NCBI GenBank assembly: GCA_005191425.1
Contig: SUPR01000063.1
Location: 1-21,812, forward strand
Reading direction: 5' to 3'
Length of the DNA: 21,812 nucleotides
Source: Candidatus Helarchaeota ASGARD archaeon Hel_GB_B
GTDB taxonomy: Archaea; Asgardarchaeota; Lokiarchaeia; Helarchaeales; HEL-GB-B
Shown here: positions 4,860 to 21,812 of the stretch, in pieces
Numbering within the stretch: the first letter of the stretch is position 1
Layout: every line of letters begins with the position of its first letter
The notes under the pieces: model-generated
Database searches by the model: none
Told to the model about the DNA's origin: nothing
What the model saw: the letters and a program-made list of their open reading frames with translations, nothing else
Made by a program: the position numbers and the translations under genes

Positions 4860-6368
4860 ATGGATGAAGAAACCCCAATTAAGTTTAAGAGTATCGATTT
4901 AATTTGGATGTTTACTGTAGATTTAATACATCCTATTAAAAATTTAAATGAAGCAATAAATAGAATTGCGGCAAGTAAATATTGTGATGGATCATTAAAT
5001 TATTATACTGCAGAAGATAGAATAAAAGGAATTGGTGAACTTAAAATATATTGTCAAGATGACTCAAGAAAAGATTATTGCAATAAATTATTGGATTTAT
5101 TTTTAAATACTGATTTTTATACATTGGACGAAGATTATTTAGAAGCACGAAGTTTCGTCCGTTTTATTTTAAAAGATATTAAATTAAAATTTCCTTTTTA
5201 TGAAAAATTTTTCAATGTTCAAGTCCTATTAACGGTATCAAGTTTAGGGATTGGTGTATTTTCTTTCTGGGCATCAATCGACGAAGGAATTGATTCAAAG
5301 ACTATTGCTCGGCTTCAAATCCTTCCCATGGAAGAAACAGGCAATATTTCAGCTGAACTACCTATTGAGTTACTTGAAGAGTTAAGTATTTTAGATAGCG
5401 ACTATAAAGCTGTTTACGAAAAAAGAAAAGCTCAAAATAAAAATGTATTTCGGCTTAAAGAAATCAATTTTGAAGCGATAATTGGTTATTATTGGTATAC
5501 TATTATTAATAGGTTATATAATTTTAAATTTAAGTCTCAATCTGAAATATCTGATCAATTGAGATGTGAATCTTATTGTGTTTTTCCAATTGTATTAATT
5601 CACTCTAAAGAATATAAATATGCAGATGAATTGATAAAAGAAAAACCGAAACAATTATACCAAATTCTCTCGCATATGTATAATATTGATTATACTTTAA
5701 TACTTTCAGATATTTTAGACGAATTCCTTACTCCCAACATAACTGAAAGGCGAGATATAGCCTATTTAGATGCTCTCGGTTCGGTATTATTAATCTTTGG
5801 ATCTGAAACGAAAAAAATAATTAAAAAACAGATGAAATATGATAATAAAATTGTTTCTGTAGAATCTGAATATCAAAAAATGATAATTGAAGCATTTATT
5901 ATTATTGAAATTTTGCAGATCCAGAGACAATATTTCAATTTCTTAACGCAAATTTTGACCCGACCTATAGCCGAAATGAGTCCTAAAGAGATATCAATAA
6001 TCAGATCATATCTATCTAAAGCTTTGGATATGTATCATGGAAATGTTACAGGAAATTCTCTGGCGAGGAAAAGAATGAACCACGGTAAAGATATCATGGA
6101 AATAGATGAAAGTTTCGATATGGTAAACGAGAAAATGGAGCTTCTAGGTGATGCACTAAGCAGTTTTAATGATTTAAGGACAAGTTTCTTTGAGATTGCA
6201 CTTGGACTGATCTTAGGTATTGTTCCATTATTTTATATCTTTTCCCCATTTCAAGATTCAATAATGAATTCAATTTTTGCTATTACTATCACGATATCCA
6301 TAATTTTAATTTTCACACTGCTATCAAGATGGTATTGGCGTAATATAAAACGTAAAGAAATCAAATAA
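4860..6368 (+). CDS. uncharacterised protein with two C-terminal TM helices, possibly a divergent CorA/MIT-like fold
   Basis: 502 aa. A large soluble region is followed by long amphipathic helices (IIEILQIQRQYF...VNEKMELLGDAL), two hydrophobic segments (FFEIALGLILGIVPLFYIF and IFAITITISIILIFTLL) and a basic tail. The CorA GMN signature is absent. The fold call is inference. Confidence 0.75.
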   Translation: MDEETPIKFKSIDLIWMFTVDLIHPIKNLNEAINRIAASKYCDGSLNYYTAEDRIKGIGELKIYCQDDSRKDYCNKLLDLFLNTDFYTLDEDYLEARSFVRFILKDIKLKFPFYEKFFNVQVLLTVSSLGIGVFSFWASIDEGIDSKTIARLQILPMEETGNISAELPIELLEELSILDSDYKAVYEKRKAQNKNVFRLKEINFEAIIGYYWYTIINRLYNFKFKSQSEISDQLRCESYCVFPIVLIHSKEYKYADELIKEKPKQLYQILSHMYNIDYTLILSDILDEFLTPNITERRDIAYLDALGSVLLIFGSETKKIIKKQMKYDNKIVSVESEYQKMIIEAFIIIEILQIQRQYFNFLTQILTRPIAEMSPKEISIIRSYLSKALDMYHGNVTGNSLARKRMNHGKDIMEIDESFDMVNEKMELLGDALSSFNDLRTSFFEIALGLILGIVPLFYIFSPFQDSIMNSIFAITITISIILIFTLLSRWYWRNIKRKEIK

Positions 6369-6496: not shown

Positions 6497-7177
6497 ATGA
6501 CAGATGAAAATAAAAAGATTTCAGCAAAGGATTGGGATAATCTTAAAAAGGAATTTCAAACTGAGCTGTGGAAACGAGCCGAAGTAATAAAAAAATTTGA
6601 TGTTACAAAAATTAAACCGACTAATATTGTATTATTTTTAGAAGACAATGAGGGGGCTGTCCAAAAAATAAAGTTAATTTCTATAAGAGGTAGAGGTGGC
6701 GTTTTAGGAAAACCATGTCCAATTAAGAATGAATATGTCGAAAAATTAATGAAAAAGTATAAAAAAGCATATCCATTCATTTCTAAAATTCTTTATTATG
6801 ATAAACCTTATTTTCCATACTCGAAAAATGATGAAATTGTAAAATTTTCACCTTTATTTATTTTAACTCATAACAAATCTTATGTACAAGATAAAATTGA
6901 CCCTTATAATGTTGAAATGGCTGGTTTTTTAATTAATTACTATCCACATCAGGGTATTTTTCTTGAAGCAGTCACTAAAAGTGTGGCAGGGACTATATCG
7001 GTAATTGAAAATATAATGTATAGAAATAAAGAAGTTTATTCTCGAAAAAATCATCTTTTAAACTGGTTATATTACTTAATAAGCCGGGACAGTTCTTCAT
7101 TAAGGGTCAAAATATTCAATATGCAACGAAAATATTTATTAGATTTTACTGATTATTTAAAATCCTTAAATGAATAA
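6497..7177 (+). CDS. hypothetical protein
   Basis: 226-aa ORF with normal composition and no recognised motif. It ends 28 nt before gatE on the same strand. Confidence 0.75.
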   Translation: MTDENKKISAKDWDNLKKEFQTELWKRAEVIKKFDVTKIKPTNIVLFLEDNEGAVQKIKLISIRGRGGVLGKPCPIKNEYVEKLMKKYKKAYPFISKILYYDKPYFPYSKNDEIVKFSPLFILTHNKSYVQDKIDPYNVEMAGFLINYYPHQGIFLEAVTKSVAGTISVIENIMYRNKEVYSRKNHLLNWLYYLISRDSSSLRVKIFNMQRKYLLDFTDYLKSLNE

Positions 7178-10544: not shown

Positions 10545-11024
10545 TCAATCAATTTTTTTAAAAATTTTTTTCAAATCTTTAAGTGTCTCGGAAACTACAG
10601 TTTCAAATGATGACAGTTCTGATCTATTTACCAATCTATCTAAATTTTCTTCCCAATTATTGAACTTATTTAAATCATTAAAAGGGTTTTTCCTCTTTAA
10701 ATCTTTATTAAATTTTGTTATAAAACTACGTTTTATAGAGTTTAATAATATTTTTGCTTGGTTTATATCGTCATCTTTCTCACAAATTACTATAAATTTG
10801 ATTTTATATTTTTTAGATATATCCCCAACAAATTTATACTCATCCGTTTCAATTGTCTGGATTTGTGTTCCTGCCCCTATAGATTGAGCGAATGAATCAA
10901 TTGCGGTAAGAAATCCTGAAATTATTGAAGGGCTCTCTTTGATTGAGTGATAATCTTTTGAAAAGATTAATGTCCCATTCGGTTGTAATACTAAAATATT
11001 TTGGATCGCCATTTTGATCGTCAA
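10545..11024 (-). CDS. stand-alone longin-like domain protein
   Basis: The pattern IQNILVLQPNGTLIFSKDY...IISGFLTAIDSFAQSI...IQTIETDEYKFV...KFIVIC...LLNSIKRSFITKF matches the beta-beta-alpha-beta-beta-beta-alpha-alpha longin order familiar from Asgard proteins. The start is probably ATG at 11012. Confidence 0.7.
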   Translation of the reverse strand: MTIKMAIQNILVLQPNGTLIFSKDYHSIKESPSIISGFLTAIDSFAQSIGAGTQIQTIETDEYKFVGDISKKYKIKFIVICEKDDDINQAKILLNSIKRSFITKFNKDLKRKNPFNDLNKFNNWEENLDRLVNRSELSSFETVVSETLKDLKKIFKKID

Positions 11025-12618: not shown

Positions 12619-13194
12619 TTATCCTATTCTTCCCACTGCTCTGACCATAATTTGAAATCCTTGTTTTGTTTTGTCATAATTGATCAATTTTTCAATCATA
12701 ATTTTATAATCGATTTCCATTATTTGGGAAATTGTTTGAGGTATTGATTTCATAGCGTTTGTTAATAATATTCTACAGACCTCTTCTATGGGATAATCTA
12801 ATGAATATTCTTTAAGTTTTGATTCAATAATGTTAAGCTCTTCTGGAGAATAAAAATAATTCACTAGTATCACTGCATCCACTGAGCTTGGACCTCTCAT
12901 ACAACTTAAACGGAGTGAATAATATTGAAAAGGATAAATCTCAGTAAGCCATTTACGAAAAATCATATTACCATAAGCCTCAATGAACGGTGATATTAAA
13001 TGTTTACCTTGATCCTTCTTCCATTTCTCCCAAATTGGCTTAAAACTCTCAATAAAATTATTTAATATGTTTTCGTCTCTTAAAGCTTCCGATAAAAATG
13101 CATTTGTTAATTTACCGCCGGTAATTTCCAATTTACTTTTTGATAAGATGCGGTCTACAAAATCCGAAAATTGAGAACTCATGTTAATCATCAA
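12619..13194 (-). CDS. hypothetical protein
   Basis: About 190-aa ORF that fills the gap between two clear genes. No recognised motif. The start could be TTG 13194, ATG 13191 or ATG 13182. Confidence 0.75.
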   Translation of the reverse strand: MMINMSSQFSDFVDRILSKSKLEITGGKLTNAFLSEALRDENILNNFIESFKPIWEKWKKDQGKHLISPFIEAYGNMIFRKWLTEIYPFQYYSLRLSCMRGPSSVDAVILVNYFYSPEELNIIESKLKEYSLDYPIEEVCRILLTNAMKSIPQTISQIMEIDYKIMIEKLINYDKTKQGFQIMVRAVGRIG

Positions 13195-14490: not shown

Positions 14491-15654
14491 ATGTACTCAT
14501 TGTGGAATTTAATCAAAAAAGAATTCGATCGGATTATAACCGACCGAAAATCATTAATTATGTTATTTTTATTACCTTTAATTACTATTATAATATTTGG
14601 GCTTTCGTCGGGTGGTGGATATATATCTACCTTTGATGCTGCCCTTATTTCTTACGATTCTCAGAGTTGGAATGGGACTTCCTATAATAATTATGAATCA
14701 ACAATGATAAATTCTTATCTTAATAGTTCACTCATTAACCTTAATTCTAATCTTGTATTTACCGAGTCATCGGGATTTAATGATTCAAAAATTTTTAACA
14801 GCCTACCCCCCAAGGTAAAATTATTGTTGTACAATGGTGATGTTGCAGTCATTGTAGTGATTCCACCAAATTTTAGTGAAACTGTCAATAAGTCAATTAA
14901 TTCTGTTCTATATTATGTATATGATGCTTCTGATTTGATGACCACAAGTAGTATCGGCGTTTCAATGCAAGAACCACTATTACTCTTTAGAGTGGCAATT
15001 AGTAATTTTAAAGGTGTTGTATTAGCATTTCCATCTCCTGAATATGATGTGCCATCATGGTATAACCAAATTTTAAATTATTCAGCTGCAATATTAATAA
15101 TAATAATAATTTTAGGTACATCAATTAATTTGACAGCATTGAGCGTAGTTTCAGAAGGGCCATTACCCAGAATGATGCTTACTCCTGCGAATAAAACTAA
15201 CACTGTATTAGCTAAATTTATTTCATATTCCGCAATTATGACTGTTCAAGCTCTTGTAGTTTTTTTCGGTAGTATGGCATTTGGTCTATATGTTTTGGGG
15301 AATCTTATTGATATATTAATTGTCTTAATATTAGTTGGATTATCTGGTGTTAGTATTGGTCTATTAATTTCATGTATTAGTACTTCAGAGCAGCAAGCAA
15401 ATCAATTATATATTGGTGTTTTCATATTTTTAATACTTTTTTCAGGAGCTTTTATCCCATTAGAATCGATGCCCGCAGCTGCTCAAATGTTTTCAAATAG
15501 CTTATCTATAACGAATGGTATTCAATTATTTTTAGATGTATCACTAAAAGGAATGTCATTAGACCTACTTCGCGTTAGTTTCATTTTAATTTTCATATTA
15601 GTACTCCTTATAGCATCAATTGTTATATTCAGATTTAGAAAAATGGAGGTTTAA
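14491..15654 (+). CDS. ABC-2 type transporter permease (N-terminal TM, large extracellular domain, five C-terminal TMs)
   Basis: KEFDRIITDRKSLIMLFLLP start motif and coupling region PRMMLTP...LAKF. The loop carries several N-x-S/T sequons. SD GAGGA at 14480-14484. Confidence 0.88.
   Translation: MYSLWNLIKKEFDRIITDRKSLIMLFLLPLITIIIFGLSSGGGYISTFDAALISYDSQSWNGTSYNNYESTMINSYLNSSLINLNSNLVFTESSGFNDSKIFNSLPPKVKLLLYNGDVAVIVVIPPNFSETVNKSINSVLYYVYDASDLMTTSSIGVSMQEPLLLFRVAISNFKGVVLAFPSPEYDVPSWYNQILNYSAAILIIIIILGTSINLTALSVVSEGPLPRMMLTPANKTNTVLAKFISYSAIMTVQALVVFFGSMAFGLYVLGNLIDILIVLILVGLSGVSIGLLISCISTSEQQANQLYIGVFIFLILFSGAFIPLESMPAAAQMFSNSLSITNGIQLFLDVSLKGMSLDLLRVSFILIFILVLLIASIVIFRFRKMEV
15645..15650 (+). 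promoter_or_regulatory. Shine-Dalgarno site (GGAGGT) embedded in the last codons of the upstream permease
   Basis: GGAGGT lies 8 nt before TTG 15659. Analogous GAGGT sites occur at 16847-16851 (before TTG 16858) and 17830-17834 (before ATG 17844). Confidence 0.75.
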
Positions 15655-15658
15655 TTGA

Positions 15659-16855
15659 TTGGGACTAAAAGAATCTTTTTCTAGAATTATAAAATTATTA
15701 TATAAAGAATTTTCACTGATTAAAGGCGATAAAAGGGCTCTTTTTATGGCACTTGCCTTACCTCCATTAATTATTTCAGCATTTGGATTTGTTGGAGTAA
15801 TTAGCGATATTGAAGGGACTCCTATTAATTGTGCTGTAATAACTTATGACTCGCTTGGTTATTATTATCCTCAATACAATACTACTTATTATAATTCGAC
15901 TTGGGATAGCGTTTTTATAAATATGTTTAATAATGGTCAATTTCCGCGGTTAAAATTAAAAATCTTTTATAATGCATCAGAAGACCCTTATAGCATGCAC
16001 GAAGCTAGATTAGACCTTGCTAGTGATAAAGTAGATTTAATCATATTGATACCTGCTGAATTTAGTGAAGCTATTGATCTAGGTTTTCCTGCAATTATTG
16101 ATAATATTCCAGATGGGTCTAATATAGAAACAATTAAAGATTCGCTAAATTTAATGTATACTGCTACTAATATTTTTGTTGAAACGAATAATATAACTCC
16201 ACAAATTAATATGAACTCTCGTCCAGTATATGGTGTTCCTCAAAACGCTAATGAAATAATGGCTTGGGCAAGTACAATTTCTTTACCATTTTTAATAATT
16301 GGTTCCTGTTTAACTCTAACAATTTTATCTGTAGTTAATGAAAAACCGATACCTCGTTTATTAATTACCCCTGCAAAAAAGGGCGAAGTTTTAGCAGCAA
16401 AATATATTGCCAATTCTATTATAATGATTGCACAATGTGTATTAACCGTAACTTTTGCGTCAATATTCGGACTTTATATTTCAGGGTCAATTGTAGACCT
16501 ATTTCTAGCTCTCTTTGCTATTGGTTTTTATGGTATGTGTATGGGTTTACTTATATCAACAATTTCTGATACGGAAACTCAAGCTAACCAACTTTTAGTG
16601 GCTGTCTTCTTAATCATGATACTCTTAAGTGGTATGTTTATTGACATTTCTAACATGAATATTGTCCTCCAAGTTATTGCATATGGTCTACCTTTTGCTT
16701 ACGCTGTACCTTTAATTTCTGAAATATGTTTTAAAGCAAAAGGTATTTTTACAAACCCAACACTATTTTGGAATTTTATGGGCATAATTATTATCTGTAT
16801 GGTAATGATCTTTCTAACATATTTGATTTTTAAATTAAAAAGAAAAGAGGTATAA
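15659..16855 (+). CDS. ABC-2 type transporter permease, paralogue of the upstream gene
   Basis: KEFSLIKGDKRALFMALALP, PRLLITPAKKGEVLAAKY and ETQANQL (EQQANQL in the paralogue), with the same topology. TTG start with SD. Confidence 0.88.
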   Translation: MGLKESFSRIIKLLYKEFSLIKGDKRALFMALALPPLIISAFGFVGVISDIEGTPINCAVITYDSLGYYYPQYNTTYYNSTWDSVFINMFNNGQFPRLKLKIFYNASEDPYSMHEARLDLASDKVDLIILIPAEFSEAIDLGFPAIIDNIPDGSNIETIKDSLNLMYTATNIFVETNNITPQINMNSRPVYGVPQNANEIMAWASTISLPFLIIGSCLTLTILSVVNEKPIPRLLITPAKKGEVLAAKYIANSIIMIAQCVLTVTFASIFGLYISGSIVDLFLALFAIGFYGMCMGLLISTISDTETQANQLLVAVFLIMILLSGMFIDISNMNIVLQVIAYGLPFAYAVPLISEICFKAKGIFTNPTLFWNFMGIIIICMVMIFLTYLIFKLKRKEV

Positions 16856-16857
16856 TA

Positions 16858-17838
16858 TTGCAAGCCAGTGAAAAACAAAAAATAATTGAGGTTTCGAATT
16901 TAAATTTATCCTTCGGTAAAAAGCATATCTTAAAAGACATTTCTTTTTATTGTTATGAAGGTGAAATTCTAGGACTAATGGGCATATCTGGAGCAGGTAA
17001 AACTACAATAGTCCGGGTATTGGTAGCACAATTACCAAATTTCACTGGTAAAGTAATCTGTGCAGGAATGGACGTAAAAAAAAGTGGAATAAAAATACTT
17101 CAAAAAATTGGATATGTCCCTCAACTTGAATCTCTAAATCTCTATTATAATTTTACTGCACTTCAAAATGTTAGAATATTCGGGTCTATGTTTGGGTTGA
17201 GTAAAAAAGAAGCTATTGAACAAGGAAAACGCATTTTTCAAGTTCTCGAAATCCCGGAAGATACATGGAAATCTAAAGTAAAAGATATGTCTGGTGGTGA
17301 AAAAAAGCGAGTTTCAATCGCATTGGGCCTTATTAATAACCCCGAAGTCCTATTTCTTGACGAACCTACTACTGGAGTTGATGCTTCTAAAAGATTCGAC
17401 ATTCTTAATTATCTCAGAAAACTAAATCGCGAAATAAAAACTACAATGGTTATTGTAACCCATGATTTAGAAACTTCTAATATTTGCGATAAAGTGGTCC
17501 TTCTTAGAAATGGGCAAATTGTCGATTTTGATACCCCTGCTAATTTAATTTATAAATTACCTTCAAATGGTGAAATCGCCCGCCTTAAAATTGATGAATT
17601 AAGCAATAAAATTATTGAAACAATTCAAAATAAAGATTATGTTAAATATGTGTTAAGAGTCGGAAAAAATGATATCGAAGTTTATCTTCATGACATTAAT
17701 AACAATATTAAAAAGCTTGTCGATCAGTTAGTCGACAACAATATCCTTGTTTCTTCAGTTACTAGAGGTGAAGCTTCTTTTAAAAGATATTTTCAAATCA
17801 GAATGCAATCTATAGAACAATCAAAAAATGAGGTTTGA
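16858..17838 (+). CDS. ABC transporter ATP-binding protein with C-terminal regulatory domain
   Basis: Walker A GISGAGKT, Q-loop YVPQ, signature MSGGE, Walker B FLDEP and H-loop VTHD. Confidence 0.93.
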   Translation: MQASEKQKIIEVSNLNLSFGKKHILKDISFYCYEGEILGLMGISGAGKTTIVRVLVAQLPNFTGKVICAGMDVKKSGIKILQKIGYVPQLESLNLYYNFTALQNVRIFGSMFGLSKKEAIEQGKRIFQVLEIPEDTWKSKVKDMSGGEKKRVSIALGLINNPEVLFLDEPTTGVDASKRFDILNYLRKLNREIKTTMVIVTHDLETSNICDKVVLLRNGQIVDFDTPANLIYKLPSNGEIARLKIDELSNKIIETIQNKDYVKYVLRVGKNDIEVYLHDINNNIKKLVDQLVDNNILVSSVTRGEASFKRYFQIRMQSIEQSKNEV

Positions 17839-17843
17839 TTAAT

Positions 17844-20800
17844 ATGAAAAAATGGATTTCGATATCTTTGATAATTGGAGTTTTAATTGGTGCTCCTGCA
17901 ATTTCATTAATTATTATTAATATTCCACCTCCCACATACTTTTCTAATAGCGAGATGCGGATGATTTATAGTGGATTTTGGGATTATTCGCGTTCTTTCA
18001 GCACTAAACACGAAAATATTTTTATTGAAACTTCGATTGATAATTTATATTACTCTATTATGGTATATAATGAATTAAATAGTACTTCCATATTCAATTA
18101 TTCTGAAATTGATAAAAAAATATATCATTACTTCTTTTGGAGTAGACAAAATACTAACGGTGGATTTTCAGATATTGCAGGTACTGGAAATATGATCGAT
18201 ACCTATAAAGCAATTATGGGAATAAATGAGACTGAAACATTTATTTCACCTGGAAATTCATCGGATCAAATTAATCTATTATTACAATTCATTAATGGTT
18301 GTAAAGTAGACTCATTTAAATTTCCATTTACCAATATTACTGGTTATTCTTCTATGCCTTTATCTTCTATAATCGATGAATTTGGGCTACCAGCTTATAC
18401 CTCTTATATAATAACTGATGTAAGTAGCACTAGTATGGCAGTTGAAATAATGAATTTATACTCAAAACTACCTTCTAATATAACAAGAATAATCAAATAT
18501 TTTCTCTCCTCTTTAGCACCTTTAGGTGGATTTAGGGCATCTCCTTTTACCCCTTATTCAACCGGTGATATAATTTCAACTTATTATGCAATTCATGGTC
18601 TAAAAATTTTGAACTATTCTTTCAGTATTTTTGAATTAAATAATTCTCTAAAACCTTGGTTAAAAAATTGCCAAAATTCTGATGGGGGTTTTGGAGTTAT
18701 GCCTGGTAATAATTCCAATTTGGAATCTACTTTTTATGCAATAAAAGCACTTCAAGAACTTGGTGATACTCCTAATAATATTTCTGCAGCAATTAATTAT
18801 ATAAAATCATGTCAAAATTTTAAAGGTATCCCTTATAATGGTGATGGCGGATTTGGATATAATGAATTAATTTATACCGAACATTCTGATTATAAGTACG
18901 CTTATTTTGCGGTCGGTGGACTTAAAATATTAGGTGGCAGTTTATCATTAGGCAATTTAACTTCTCTACATGAATGGTTTATATCTAATTACGCAAAAAA
19001 TGGTTTTTTTGGCTTAAAGTCTGTAGTAGCTAATTATTGGGGGTTAAATGCAGCAGAAATTGCAAGTAAAAAAGGTTTTAATATTTTTTCAAGCTATGAA
19101 AATATTTCTTTATATCTGAATATGTGCCAAAATAGTGATGGTGGTTATGGGATAAGACCTAATGAACCTTCGGACGTTTTATCAACTTATTGTGCTATTA
19201 AATCCTATTCAATTATACATATTACTCCACCTAATATCAATAAATCAATAAATTGGCTAAAATCTCTCCAAAACTCTGACGGTGGGTTTAAGACTTATAT
19301 TGATTTTACTTATTTAATTCAATTATATGGGCCATTATTTGGTTTAATTAATGAAGAATTAGTCAATGAAAACATTTCATCCGTCCCTGCCACGTTTTTT
19401 GCGGTCGCTTCACTAAATATATTAGGCTCAAATCCTAATGAAATATGGAATTTAACTTTATGGTTAAAATCCCTACAGAACCCTGATGGTGGTTTCGCTT
19501 TTACTCTTGGATCAAAAAGCGAGGTTATTTCTACATATTATACAATTCAGACATTTAAATACGTAGGTTCATCCCAAGATTCTAGAATGTCTGCAATTGA
19601 ATTTTTAAGGAATTGCCAAGGTTCAGATGGTGGATTTGCTCCATATCCATATTTAGCCGATTTTCTGGGATATTCATATTTATTTGTTTCATATACTGCT
19701 AGTAGATCATTATATTATTTAGGATATTTTCCCGAAAATATCTTATTAACAGTTCGTTGGTTTGCCTCATGCTTTGATTACGAATATTACAACCTCACAA
19801 AATCTGGAATTGGCATAGGCGATGTACCCGGTTTTGGTGCGGATTTAAGAAATACTTATTATACAATGGACATAATTGAACAGCTGAATAAAAATCAAAC
19901 ATTTGACCCAGATCCATGGAACACCCTAATTTTATCTATTCTAATCATTGATTCCACATTCTTAATAGCGTGGCTAATTGGCTCTTTATTTATTAAGAAA
20001 ATTAAAAGAAAGCCTAAAGTAGATGAAAAATTAAAATATAGCATCACCTCGAACCCTGCAATTTTTGTAGAAAAAATGATGGTAAAAGCTGGAAAAAAAA
20101 TAATAATTAAAGACATCTCAATTACATTAAACCATAAAGAAGTACTTGGAGTCATTGGTGAGTCTGGAGCTGGTAAATCAACATTTATAAAAGCTGCTTT
20201 AGGTACACGTAAAGCTACTGGAATAAGAAAAATTTATGGCTATGATGTAGAATCTAATAAAAAGAAACTAAGTCCACTCATTGGATATGTACCTCAAGAT
20301 TTAGGACAAACTTTATATCATAACCTATCAGTTCAAAAGAACATAGAAATTTTCGGTGTACAATATGGTCTTAAAAAAGAAGAAATAGAAAAAGAATCTA
20401 ATATTATTCTAAAAGATTTGGGTATTCTGGACAAGAAAGATGAATTTATTAGAAATTTAAGTGGCGGGCAAAAGCGAAGGGCCTCTATTGCAATAGCTAT
20501 GATTCACCATCCTCTATTATTTATTCTTGACGAACCTACTTCTGGCTTAGATCCTATTATTAGAGAACAACTATGGGAAACTCTTCTAAAAGTAAATGAT
20601 AAATATCAAACTACATTAGTAGTTATTACTCATTATCCTGAAGAGTCTAGATATTGTACTAAATGCGCTATCTTTGGTAGAAAAAGAGGTATGATTGATT
20701 TTGGCACACCACAAGAATTAATTTCAAATTTACCTGGCTCTGGCCGTGCAATTGAAGTTTTGATCCAATCTGATAAAAATAATTTAATAGAAATTCTTCG

Positions 20801-20996
20801 GAATATTCCTGAGTTTGATTTTGTCCTGGAAGAAAGGAAAAACGAACTCTTTAAGATCTTTACCAATTTGACTAGATCTGAAATATTGGAAATATTAACA
20901 AAAAATTTTGAGGCATATGAAATCAAGGATATCCAACAAATTGAAGCCGGGATGAGCGATTATTTTAGATTAAAATCTTTAGAAATTACTGAATAA
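17844..20996 (+). CDS. fusion protein: signal/anchor + prenyltransferase/squalene-oxidase-type repeats + TM helix + ABC ATPase
   Basis: A hydrophobic N-terminus (WISISLIIGVLIGAPAISLIIINI) is followed by about 11 repeats of the W/Y-L-x-x-x-Q-N-x-D-G-G-F...S/D-x-x-x-T-Y-Y-A-I type (~18130-19880). A TM helix at ~19917-19994 is followed by KKIKRKPK, then an intact NBD (GESGAGKS, YVPQ, LSGGQ, ILDEP, ITHY). ATG 17844 fits the SD better than TTG 17835 in the track. Confidence 0.88.
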   Translation: MKKWISISLIIGVLIGAPAISLIIINIPPPTYFSNSEMRMIYSGFWDYSRSFSTKHENIFIETSIDNLYYSIMVYNELNSTSIFNYSEIDKKIYHYFFWSRQNTNGGFSDIAGTGNMIDTYKAIMGINETETFISPGNSSDQINLLLQFINGCKVDSFKFPFTNITGYSSMPLSSIIDEFGLPAYTSYIITDVSSTSMAVEIMNLYSKLPSNITRIIKYFLSSLAPLGGFRASPFTPYSTGDIISTYYAIHGLKILNYSFSIFELNNSLKPWLKNCQNSDGGFGVMPGNNSNLESTFYAIKALQELGDTPNNISAAINYIKSCQNFKGIPYNGDGGFGYNELIYTEHSDYKYAYFAVGGLKILGGSLSLGNLTSLHEWFISNYAKNGFFGLKSVVANYWGLNAAEIASKKGFNIFSSYENISLYLNMCQNSDGGYGIRPNEPSDVLSTYCAIKSYSIIHITPPNINKSINWLKSLQNSDGGFKTYIDFTYLIQLYGPLFGLINEELVNENISSVPATFFAVASLNILGSNPNEIWNLTLWLKSLQNPDGGFAFTLGSKSEVISTYYTIQTFKYVGSSQDSRMSAIEFLRNCQGSDGGFAPYPYLADFLGYSYLFVSYTASRSLYYLGYFPENILLTVRWFASCFDYEYYNLTKSGIGIGDVPGFGADLRNTYYTMDIIEQLNKNQTFDPDPWNTLILSILIIDSTFLIAWLIGSLFIKKIKRKPKVDEKLKYSITSNPAIFVEKMMVKAGKKIIIKDISITLNHKEVLGVIGESGAGKSTFIKAALGTRKATGIRKIYGYDVESNKKKLSPLIGYVPQDLGQTLYHNLSVQKNIEIFGVQYGLKKEEIEKESNIILKDLGILDKKDEFIRNLSGGQKRRASIAIAMIHHPLLFILDEPTSGLDPIIREQLWETLLKVNDKYQTTLVVITHYPEESRYCTKCAIFGRKRGMIDFGTPQELISNLPGSGRAIEVLIQSDKNNLIEILRNIPEFDFVLEERKNELFKIFTNLTRSEILEILTKNFEAYEIKDIQQIEAGMSDYFRLKSLEITE

Positions 20997-21027
20997 ATTT
21001 ATATTCTTCGTCAAAATTGTGAAAAAA

Positions 21028-21812
21028 ATGAGTACAAATGAAAATGTTAGAAACGAAATATTGAAAATAATGACCAAATTCGGATTTTGGGCTATAATGA
21101 AAAATTATATGAACGGAGTTGCTGGTTATATCCGGGCAGGTAATAATAAAATTTACTGTGAAATATTATTTCCCAATGATTACCCAAATAAAAATGCAAT
21201 TTTCAAATTTCCAAATAAAACATCAATAAAAATTTTAAACAAATATAATGAACTAATCCAGAAAAATAAAAAAATATCTCCATTTCAAATCATAGACGAG
21301 CTAAGGTCTACCGTCAAAACATTACCACCACCCGGTGTCATCCTTGAAGAAGACCTAGACCTCGAATTAAACCGAATTAGTAAATATTATAAAATTTCTA
21401 CGTCCAACGACAAATATAAAATTAAAGTAGAATTTGAAAGTCCCAAATTAGTTTTTTATTCAATGGACCTAGACGTCCATAATTATCCAAAATTAATTGA
21501 TATTAAATTTTCAAACGACCTTCAAAAAGTTATAGGTGATCCACACGAATTAGAATTTATGAAAAATTGGAATTCGAGTAGACCACTTGATATCTTGGAA
21601 ATTATTGATTCAGTTAATAAAATTTTGAAAAGTTATAAAGAGTCAATCACTGATGACCAAACAATTTCCATCAAAAATTTAGATATAATAATTGATGGTA
21701 AAAAAATAATCAACAATCTTAATTTTCTGATACAATCTGGTGAATTAATTGGAATTTATACCGAAAATCAAGATATTATTAAACCATTTTTCAATGCTTT
21801 TATAGGAAAACA
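21028..21812 (+). CDS. partial CDS (not in ORF track): two UBC/RWD-like repeats + start of a degenerate ABC ATPase-like domain
   Basis: Open frame of 261 codons from ATG 21028 to the window edge, 31 nt after the fusion gene. It contains YCEILFPNDYPNKNAIFKF and MDLDVHNYPKLIDIKF...KNWNSSRPLDILEIIDSV. From 21664 it reads ISIKNLDIIIDGKKIINNLNFLIQSGELIGI, followed by YTENQDIIKP in place of a Walker A. Confidence 0.75.
   Translation, partial: MSTNENVRNEILKIMTKFGFWAIMKNYMNGVAGYIRAGNNKIYCEILFPNDYPNKNAIFKFPNKTSIKILNKYNELIQKNKKISPFQIIDELRSTVKTLPPPGVILEEDLDLELNRISKYYKISTSNDKYKIKVEFESPKLVFYSMDLDVHNYPKLIDIKFSNDLQKVIGDPHELEFMKNWNSSRPLDILEIIDSVNKILKSYKESITDDQTISIKNLDIIIDGKKIINNLNFLIQSGELIGIYTENQDIIKPFFNAFIGK

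Follow-up and report, generated by a model that had tools for sequence, protein, structure and literature searches.

A non-catalytic tandem UBC/RWD-fold protein with a degenerate ABC nucleotide-binding domain, encoded in a conserved ABC-2 operon of Lokiarchaeia

We analysed contig SUPR01000063.1 of the Candidatus Helarchaeota archaeon Hel_GB_B, a stretch of 21,812 nucleotides (hereafter the window) that makes up one whole contig (C144); the assembly comprises 3.5 Mb in 182 contigs. At its end, on the forward strand, lies the 5' part (21028..21812; 261 of 518 codons) of a gene whose product joins two UBC-superfold domains without a catalytic cysteine to an ATP-binding cassette (ABC) nucleotide-binding domain (NBD) that has lost its catalytic motifs. 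We refer to it as the RWD-RWD-pseudoNBD gene. It closes, as the fifth gene, an ABC-2 operon whose other four members also lie on the forward strand: ABC-2 permease A (14491..15654; Pfam ABC2_membrane_3, 6.4e-22), ABC-2 permease B (15659..16855; ABC2_membrane_3, 1.5e-23), a canonical ABC NBD with intact motifs, NBD1 (16858..17838; ABC_tran, 4.6e-28), and a fusion protein of 1053 amino acids (aa) with a second intact NBD, NBD2 (17835..20996; Prenyltrans, 1.3e-41; ABC_tran, 9.6e-26). This fusion consists of a prenyltransferase/squalene-cyclase-type alpha/alpha toroid, a transmembrane segment and the NBD, and is called toroid-TM-NBD2 below. The fifth gene is a real, selected gene and probably encodes a docking or regulatory subunit of the adjoining ABC-2 transporter.

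The reading frame is open, without a stop, from a GTG at 21019 or an ATG at 21028 to the last base of the window, and the gene is incomplete there because the contig end cuts it. An exhaustive phmmer search with the window fragment recovered the complete protein, P0002, of 518 aa, which starts at the ATG at 21028. Over fragment residues 4-264 the two are identical (phmmer 100%) save for one D/N change in the remnant of the Walker A motif. Three sister assemblies encode P0002; their DNA, 99.3-99.6% identical to the window, extends past the window end. The 3' half of the gene was not found in the window's own assembly, which gave weak matches to other NBDs only, and the full-length sequence was therefore taken from the sister assemblies. 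In these, the gene stops at codon 518 and is followed by a 570-bp spacer and an unrelated PAC2-family gene. The spacer (L002:11558-12128) is very AT-rich and non-coding, with no sizeable open reading frame (ORF), and the PAC2 gene is proteasome assembly chaperone-like. The first-pass annotation had called the ORF un-annotated; this does not hold for the sister-assembly records at NCBI, which name it 'hypothetical protein' or 'ATP-binding cassette domain-containing protein', and identical and related proteins are filed there under Candidatus Helarchaeota, Lokiarchaeota and Promethearchaeota. A Pfam scan of the 264-aa fragment and of P0002 returned no meaningful match, and a KH_TffA match at E = 0.05 was rejected as noise. 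Three further phmmer matches (P0004, P0020 and P0021) are giant FG-GAP repeat proteins and not homologues: their E-values, down to 3e-35, are built from many summed weak matches to the D/L-rich linker, a false-positive pattern that calls for caution in phmmer searches with this fragment as query. P0002 has four parts: an RWD/UEV-like domain (residues 1-104), a cysteine-less E2-like domain (105-208), a motif-less NBD (~209-435) and a regulatory domain (~436-518) of the kind usual in ABC-2/ABCA-type NBDs.

We modelled residues 1-210 with AlphaFold2 from a 16-sequence orthologue alignment with identities down to 19%, and obtained a confident model (predicted local distance difference test, pLDDT, 89.4; predicted template modelling score 0.74). 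It contains twice the succession of a helix, a four-strand meander and two to three helices, so that both N-terminal domains display the UBC-fold pattern of N-terminal helix, beta-meander and C-terminal helices. Domain 1 (21028..21339, forward strand) comprises a helix at residues 5-18, four strands, and helices at 67-79 and 85-97; domain 2 (21340..21651, forward strand) has an E2-like topology. In a Foldseek search of the PDB, FANCL of the Fanconi core complex ranked first, with a match that spans both domains (E = 9.5e-5), followed by Knl1, CENP-O/P, RWDD1 and many E2s. The same superfold was retrieved by VIA-align, which is independent of Foldseek and was run against 48,161 representative chains with a stated background of Z 7-8. 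Residues 1-104 matched the UEV domain of Tsg101 (Z 9.9), the RWD domains of RWDD1 (9.8) and GCN2 (9.4) and the UEV domain of Vps23 (9.3), while residues 104-210 matched the E2s Ubc8, Ube2W, Ubc13 and UbcH5c (Z 8.6-9.4) and the UEV-like domain of VPS37A (9.3); the double-RWD of FANCL (central DRWD) was matched at Z 8.0 over 173 residues. These Z values lie near the background of the tool, and their weight comes from hits that belong nearly all to one superfold and cover the domains end to end, in agreement with the sequence evidence. Searches of the ESM Atlas and AFDB returned RWD, RING, FANCL and RNF25 clusters, with a Promethearchaeota 'RWD domain-containing' cluster at the top. The tandem non-catalytic UBC/RWD fold that the first-pass annotation had proposed from short motifs is thus borne out by the predicted structure.

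The sequence of the N-terminal region points the same way. Its profile matches multi-RWD-RING paralogues in the domain-2 region at E-values of 1e-15 to 1e-18, and eight residues are invariant across the 16 sequences, even at 19-26% identity (W21, G30, A32, E45, P53, Y153, P154 and W181). The motifs LFPNDYP in repeat 1 and NYP...W..S.P..ILEIIDSV in repeat 2 were located as previously described. Three of the invariant residues (P53, Y153 and P154) belong to the YPxxP turn, which is present in domain 2 of most orthologues; the Helarchaeota protein reads DYPNKN and NYPKLI and has lost the second proline of the turn. Catalytic features of an E2 (UQ_con, PF00179) were not detected: there is no HPN motif, and no orthologue carries a cysteine at the aligned loop after strand 4. 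The only cysteine, C44 of P0002, lies within a beta-strand and is not conserved among orthologues, in line with the earlier remark that no suitably placed catalytic cysteine is visible. The family stays below the Pfam threshold for RWD (PF05773), with no match for the Helarchaeota protein, a best value of E = 0.053 among the 16 members, and FANCL_d1 at E = 0.09-0.11; the RWD-RING paralogues, by comparison, pass it with 29.5-41.5 bits (cut-off 22.8). A PDB profile search with the N-terminal alignment gave sub-significant matches to E2 L3 and BRE/BRCC45 (E = 0.1-0.8) that we did not use as proof. The N-terminal domains are therefore filed as RWD/UEV-like members of the UBC superfold and not as certified members of PF05773. 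Domain 1 is the more RWD/UEV-like of the two, and domain 2 has the E2-like NYP...W..P layout without HPN or cysteine. A C-terminal RING finger, as in an E3 of the FANCL type, was not found in P0002, whose C-terminus consists of the NBD and regulatory domain and contains no Cys/His finger; only the paralogues carry RING fingers.

The first strands of the degenerate NBD lie at 21652..21812 on the forward strand, and the remainder is encoded beyond the window. By BLASTP, P0002 aligns to the upstream NBD2 with 26% identity (E = 6e-19, 72 bits) and to the upstream NBD1 with 24% identity (E = 5e-16, 64 bits). Both alignments cross the NBD into the C-terminal domain, and that to NBD2 begins at the Walker A region. 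The family profile matches ABC NBDs of the PDB at E = 5e-17, and AlphaFold2 folds residues 205-518 with a pLDDT of 91.8. Foldseek places this model closest to TM_1403 (4yer, E = 3e-18), followed by PmtCD (6xji), NosF (7o14), ABCA4 and ABCA7, all NBDs with a C-terminal domain (E = 3e-18 to 1e-15, TM-score 0.62-0.72). The protein is a member of the ABC NBDs by descent and by fold, with a RecA-like core and a helical subdomain, and the sequence downstream of the window does continue as an ABC NBD. Pfam ABC_tran (PF00005) is sub-threshold in the orthologues (14-22 bits, threshold 25) and absent for P0002. The C-terminal regulatory domain belongs to the DrrA type (PF13732), with strands and helices at model residues 232-313; Pfam DrrA1-3_C gave a weak match in one orthologue (E = 0.0098). 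Its invariant residues include E463, E468, P501 and D505, and it has an EER..E..F pattern in common with NBD2. The first-pass annotation had raised the question of a second, intact NBD later in the protein; none is present, the regulatory domain stands in its place, and the intact NBDs are encoded by the separate upstream genes.

We compared the catalytic motifs of nine orthologues with those of eight companion NBDs, namely NBD1 and NBD2 of four operons. All eight companions have an intact Walker A, Q-loop, signature, Walker B/D-loop and H-loop, whereas each of the nine orthologues has degenerate versions of all five. In the window, the Walker A remnant YTENQDIIKP occupies exactly 21757..21786 on the forward strand, as the first-pass annotation had it, and lies opposite GESGAGKST of the neighbouring NBD. 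In P0002 it reads TENQNIIKP; the Walker lysine is replaced by isoleucine, and GxxGxGK[ST] occurs in no orthologue. The Q-loop, present in the companion NBD2, is lost in P0002. The signature LSGGQKRR of NBD2 corresponds to LNLSQKYR in P0002, the Walker B/D-loop ILDEPTSGLD to LINKPEYQLN (in the longer reading of Walker B, LILINKPE), and the H-loop ITH to IYS (within IYSET). A partial L-x-x-x-[QE]-x-x-R, with an invariant arginine, survives in the signature region. In the AlphaFold2 model, the strand before the former P-loop passes almost straight into the helix and no P-loop is left. The earlier description of a dead P-loop was therefore right but understated, for the other four motifs are degenerate too. 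In ABC proteins, one NBD contributes Walker A, Walker B and the H-loop to an ATP site, and its partner NBD contributes the signature. A dimer with an NBD of the P0002 type would lack a competent ATP site because each site needs motifs of both NBDs, and such a protein therefore could not be expected to power transport. With all five catalytic motifs lost, the P0002-type NBD is, as judged from its sequence, not a functional ABC ATPase.

The operon context of the gene is conserved. In eight of eight independent contexts, with identities to P0002 down to ~20%, the gene adjoins the module of NBD1 (~330-370 aa) and toroid-TM-NBD2 (~1020-1120 aa). Both ABC-2 permeases are visible in four of these contexts and one in a fifth, and the remaining contigs end too soon. 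The gene directly follows the toroid-TM-NBD2 gene in seven contexts, and in the eighth the two are divergent yet adjacent. Its start overlaps or abuts the stop of NBD2 in five contexts (L010, L012, L014, L016 and L017), and this overlap suggests translational coupling with the NBD2 gene. Outside Helarchaeota, a sixth gene follows the orthologue in six of seven contexts (L010:7722-8585, L012:8295-9104, L014:11568-12374, L011:3299-4105, L016:11786-12574 and L017:5757-6617). Its product, of 262-287 aa, has a longin-like N-terminus, with a weak Fuz_longin_1 match, and several transmembrane segments. A homologue of this gene 6 is present in Helarchaeota at C119:27031-27888 of the window's genome, outside any ABC context. 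As an operon partner it was rejected, with no ABC genes around it. The PAC2 gene was likewise rejected as a Helarchaeota equivalent of gene 6: the two do not align (12-21% identity), their layouts differ, and only the Helarchaeota protein matches PAC2.

We recorded full-length N-terminal matches with intact frames across 301 sampled genomes of the phylum. They occur in 37, all of one class, that of the window's genome, and among the genomes sampled the ABC-2 operon with this gene is confined to Asgard archaea of the class Lokiarchaeia. In a maximum-likelihood tree the pseudoNBDs form one clade with full support (100/100) on a long stem. The unrooted tree groups them with NBD2 against NBD1 and the outgroups (support 83/78).

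Relatives of the N-terminal region in the window's own genome are two proteins of 367 and 429 aa, encoded at L005:4058-5161 on contig C152 and at L006:3968-5257 on contig C178, both on the reverse strand. In each, three UBC/RWD-like repeats are followed by a RING-like Cys/His finger at the C-terminus, in a layout that resembles FANCL. The gene on C178 directly adjoins a ThiF/E1-like gene and a gene for a soluble prenyltransferase-toroid protein, and the C152 gene adjoins a zf-RING_2 gene. Most of the sampled genomes in the class have RWD-RING homologues with three to four repeats, a larger number than carry the RWD-RWD-pseudoNBD family, and three weak matches lie in other classes. The Lokiarchaeial multi-RWD-RING proteins (P0008 and P0015 among them) are sequence homologues of domain 2 and have the motif NYP..P...W..P..h..h..E in common with it. 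These proteins pass the Pfam thresholds for RWD and UQ_con. They differ in their three to four repeats, their RING-like finger, the absence of an NBD and their other genomic contexts.

Taken together, these observations lead us to lean towards a reading in which the protein is a non-catalytic accessory subunit of the ABC-2 transporter that presents two UBC-fold docking domains. The dead NBD would have arisen by duplication of one of the operon's NBDs, most likely that of the upstream toroid-TM-NBD2 gene. It would no longer bind or hydrolyse ATP, and a composite ATP site shared with a partner would not be competent. The surfaces of its NBD and regulatory domain would have been kept and would attach the protein to the transporter, most likely to NBD2; we place the attachment there because of the genomic context and the conservation, several invariant residues lying in the regulatory domain. 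The two UBC-fold domains would serve as a cytoplasmic docking platform for another protein, and the subunit would modulate the transporter, or couple it to that partner, rather than power transport. Candidate partners are the gene-6 longin-like membrane protein and components of an Asgard ubiquitin-like system. The more specific proposal, that the protein couples an Asgard ABC-2 exporter with an extracellular toroid to eukaryote-like cytoplasmic machinery, either ubiquitin-like conjugation (E1-like, RWD-RING) or the gene-6 longin-type protein, is in our estimate quite unlikely.

Several points weigh against an accessory subunit of this kind. With two permeases and two intact NBDs encoded in the operon, a complete transporter needs no third NBD. 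Gene 6 is missing at the Helarchaeota operon, so that this candidate partner is not universal. The pseudoNBDs evolve several-fold faster than their companions (terminal branches 0.34-1.9, as against 0.14-0.55 for NBD1 and NBD2), and their interfaces may have changed. Their placement beside NBD2 is a lead only, with weak support and long branches, and the pseudoNBD may retain some residual, non-canonical nucleotide binding. A three-chain complex prediction of the pseudoNBD with NBD1 and NBD2 scored 0.01 against a mark of 0.32; controls were not run, and the result is neither support nor counter-evidence.

In place of an accessory subunit, the protein might be an adaptor to the ubiquitin system, with its cysteine-less UBC/UEV domains binding an Asgard ubiquitin-like protein, E2 or E3, an arrangement that would subject the transporter or its cargo to ubiquitin-type control, or would allow ubiquitylated proteins to be recognised there. 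The top fold matches do include the ubiquitin-binding UEVs of Tsg101 and Vps23 as well as E2s, domain 2 shares homology with the multi-RWD-RING repeats, and Asgard archaea possess E1/E2/RING systems (PMC5654768, PMC9192718). The strongest, though indirect, hint is that the own-genome paralogues adjoin ThiF/E1-like and zf-RING_2 genes. At single orthologous loci, a VWA-Ssl1-RING gene lies two genes downstream (L010:8700-9893) and a Prok-JAB gene upstream (L016:680-1345), but neither neighbour is conserved, and no E1, E2, ubiquitin or JAB gene was found conserved beside the operon across the eight contexts. Moreover, the fold does not imply binding to ubiquitin or an E2, because RWD domains are general protein-docking modules: those of GCN2, the kinetochore, the Mediator and FANCL dock non-ubiquitin partners (PMC6601020). 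We therefore regard a ubiquitin adaptor as unlikely. Much the same holds for an inhibitory decoy, in which the dead NBD would compete for the head-to-tail dimer or for the coupling helices of the permeases until a signal sensed by the RWD domains releases the transporter. A fully retained NBD fold with every catalytic motif lost would suit such a role, as would the surplus of three NBD-like modules per two permeases and the conserved neighbourhood; but the same data fit an accessory subunit equally, and an inhibitor that is constitutively co-transcribed and apparently translationally coupled would be wasteful, which makes this reading improbable as well.

The adjacency and start/stop overlap specifically with the toroid-TM-NBD2 gene, NBD2 as nearest paralogue, and the partial signature with its invariant arginine would also be compatible with a protein that pairs only with the single-pass toroid-TM-NBD2 protein, as the other half of a receptor-like, non-transporting ATP switch that relays an extracellular ligand to the RWD platform. 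In such a pair, however, the signature would be degenerate at site 1 and Walker A dead at site 2, so that ATP-driven dimerisation is questionable, and permease genes appear in every context whose contig extends far enough in the upstream direction (five of eight); we consider this arrangement very doubtful. Finally, the loss of catalytic motifs, the fast evolution and the absence of a Pfam match could be taken as signs of a decaying, non-functional duplicate or of a chance ORF at a contig end. Intact, stop-free, full-length frames in 37 genomes, invariant core residues, confident AlphaFold2 folds for both halves and synteny kept down to ~20% identity speak so strongly against decay or chance that we give this reading hardly any credence.

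Comparison with known systems sets the favoured reading of a non-catalytic accessory subunit in context. FANCL, an E3 with ELF, double-RWD and RING parts (7kzp_L, 3zqs), likewise has consecutive cysteine-less UBC/RWD domains. It differs in several ways: the archaeal protein has no RING, the orientation between its domains is another (root-mean-square deviation, rmsd, ~11 Å over both), the identity is 10-16%, and FANCL is eukaryotic and has no ABC module. The RWD domains of GCN2, RWDD1 and RNF25 (PF05773) and the UEV domains of Tsg101/Vps23 resemble the archaeal domains in an alpha-beta4-alpha2 arrangement of ~100 aa, a YP(xx)P turn and the lack of a catalytic cysteine (Z 9.0-9.9, rmsd 2.7-4.0 over 100-109 residues); the differences are the sub-threshold Pfam RWD scores of the archaeal family and the missing second proline in the Helarchaeota protein. 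For the C-terminal half, the best structural matches are NBDs of ABC-2/type V transporters with a regulatory domain (4yer, 6xji, 7o14, ABCA4/ABCA7), a layout that NBD1 and NBD2 of the window also have; the fifth protein differs from these in lacking the catalytic motifs and in its N-terminal extension of tandem UBC folds. Degenerate NBDs beside intact ones are familiar from heterodimeric ABC transporters such as TM287/288, CFTR (NBD1) and TAP1, in which an NBD paralogue has lost catalytic residues. There, Walker A is kept, ATP is bound at the one degenerate site, and the degenerate NBD is one of the transporter's two. The P0002-type protein, by contrast, lacks all five motifs, including the whole glycine-rich loop and the Walker lysine, and adds a third NBD-like module to an operon that has two intact ones.

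Each part of the protein is thus known in kind, be it the RWD/UEV-like adaptor domains, the degenerate NBD or the ABC-2-type regulatory domain. The fusion, and the use of a motif-less NBD as the third NBD-like module of a conserved operon, appear to be undescribed. Searches on RWD/UEV-ABC fusions, Asgard RWD proteins and fully degenerate NBD subunits returned no description of the family in the accessible literature, although many subscription papers lay outside the search and this absence is not proof. For Asgard archaea, a kinetochore study (Tromer et al. 2019; PMC6601020) mentions no more than 'an RWD-like domain', and it reports a single sequence basal to the eukaryotic RWDs. Eukaryotic machines such as FANCL, the kinetochore, GCN2, the Mediator and ESCRT-I are built in part from UBC/RWD domains without catalytic activity. 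Here tandem RWD-like domains are fixed in a lineage-specific Asgard protein, and the wider family to which it belongs also comprises multi-RWD-RING proteins of FANCL-like layout, a finding relevant to what the archaeal ancestor of eukaryotes already possessed. An NBD lacking all five motifs is unusual as the third NBD-like module of a conserved operon, and it would illustrate clearly how an ATPase fold can be put to new use as a scaffold. If the proposed coupling of an exporter to cytoplasmic machinery were true, the operon would represent a prokaryotic precursor of membrane-transport control that relies on ubiquitin or on RWD/longin proteins, and FANCL/kinetochore-type tandem RWD modules would predate eukaryotes. 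The system is compact, with five or six genes, and the hypotheses are testable.

Elsewhere in the window, three ORFs have no Pfam match at E <= 0.001, at 4860-6368 (forward strand, 502 aa), 6497-7177 (forward strand, 226 aa) and 12619-13194 (reverse strand, 191 aa). Neighbouring genes, among them GatD/GatE and the sybindin/longin-like gene described next, point to an archaeon with eukaryote-like traits. A further ORF on the reverse strand (10545-11024, 159 aa) has weak sybindin and longin matches (E = 2e-4 and 8e-4) and may encode a TRAPP/longin-like eukaryotic signature protein.

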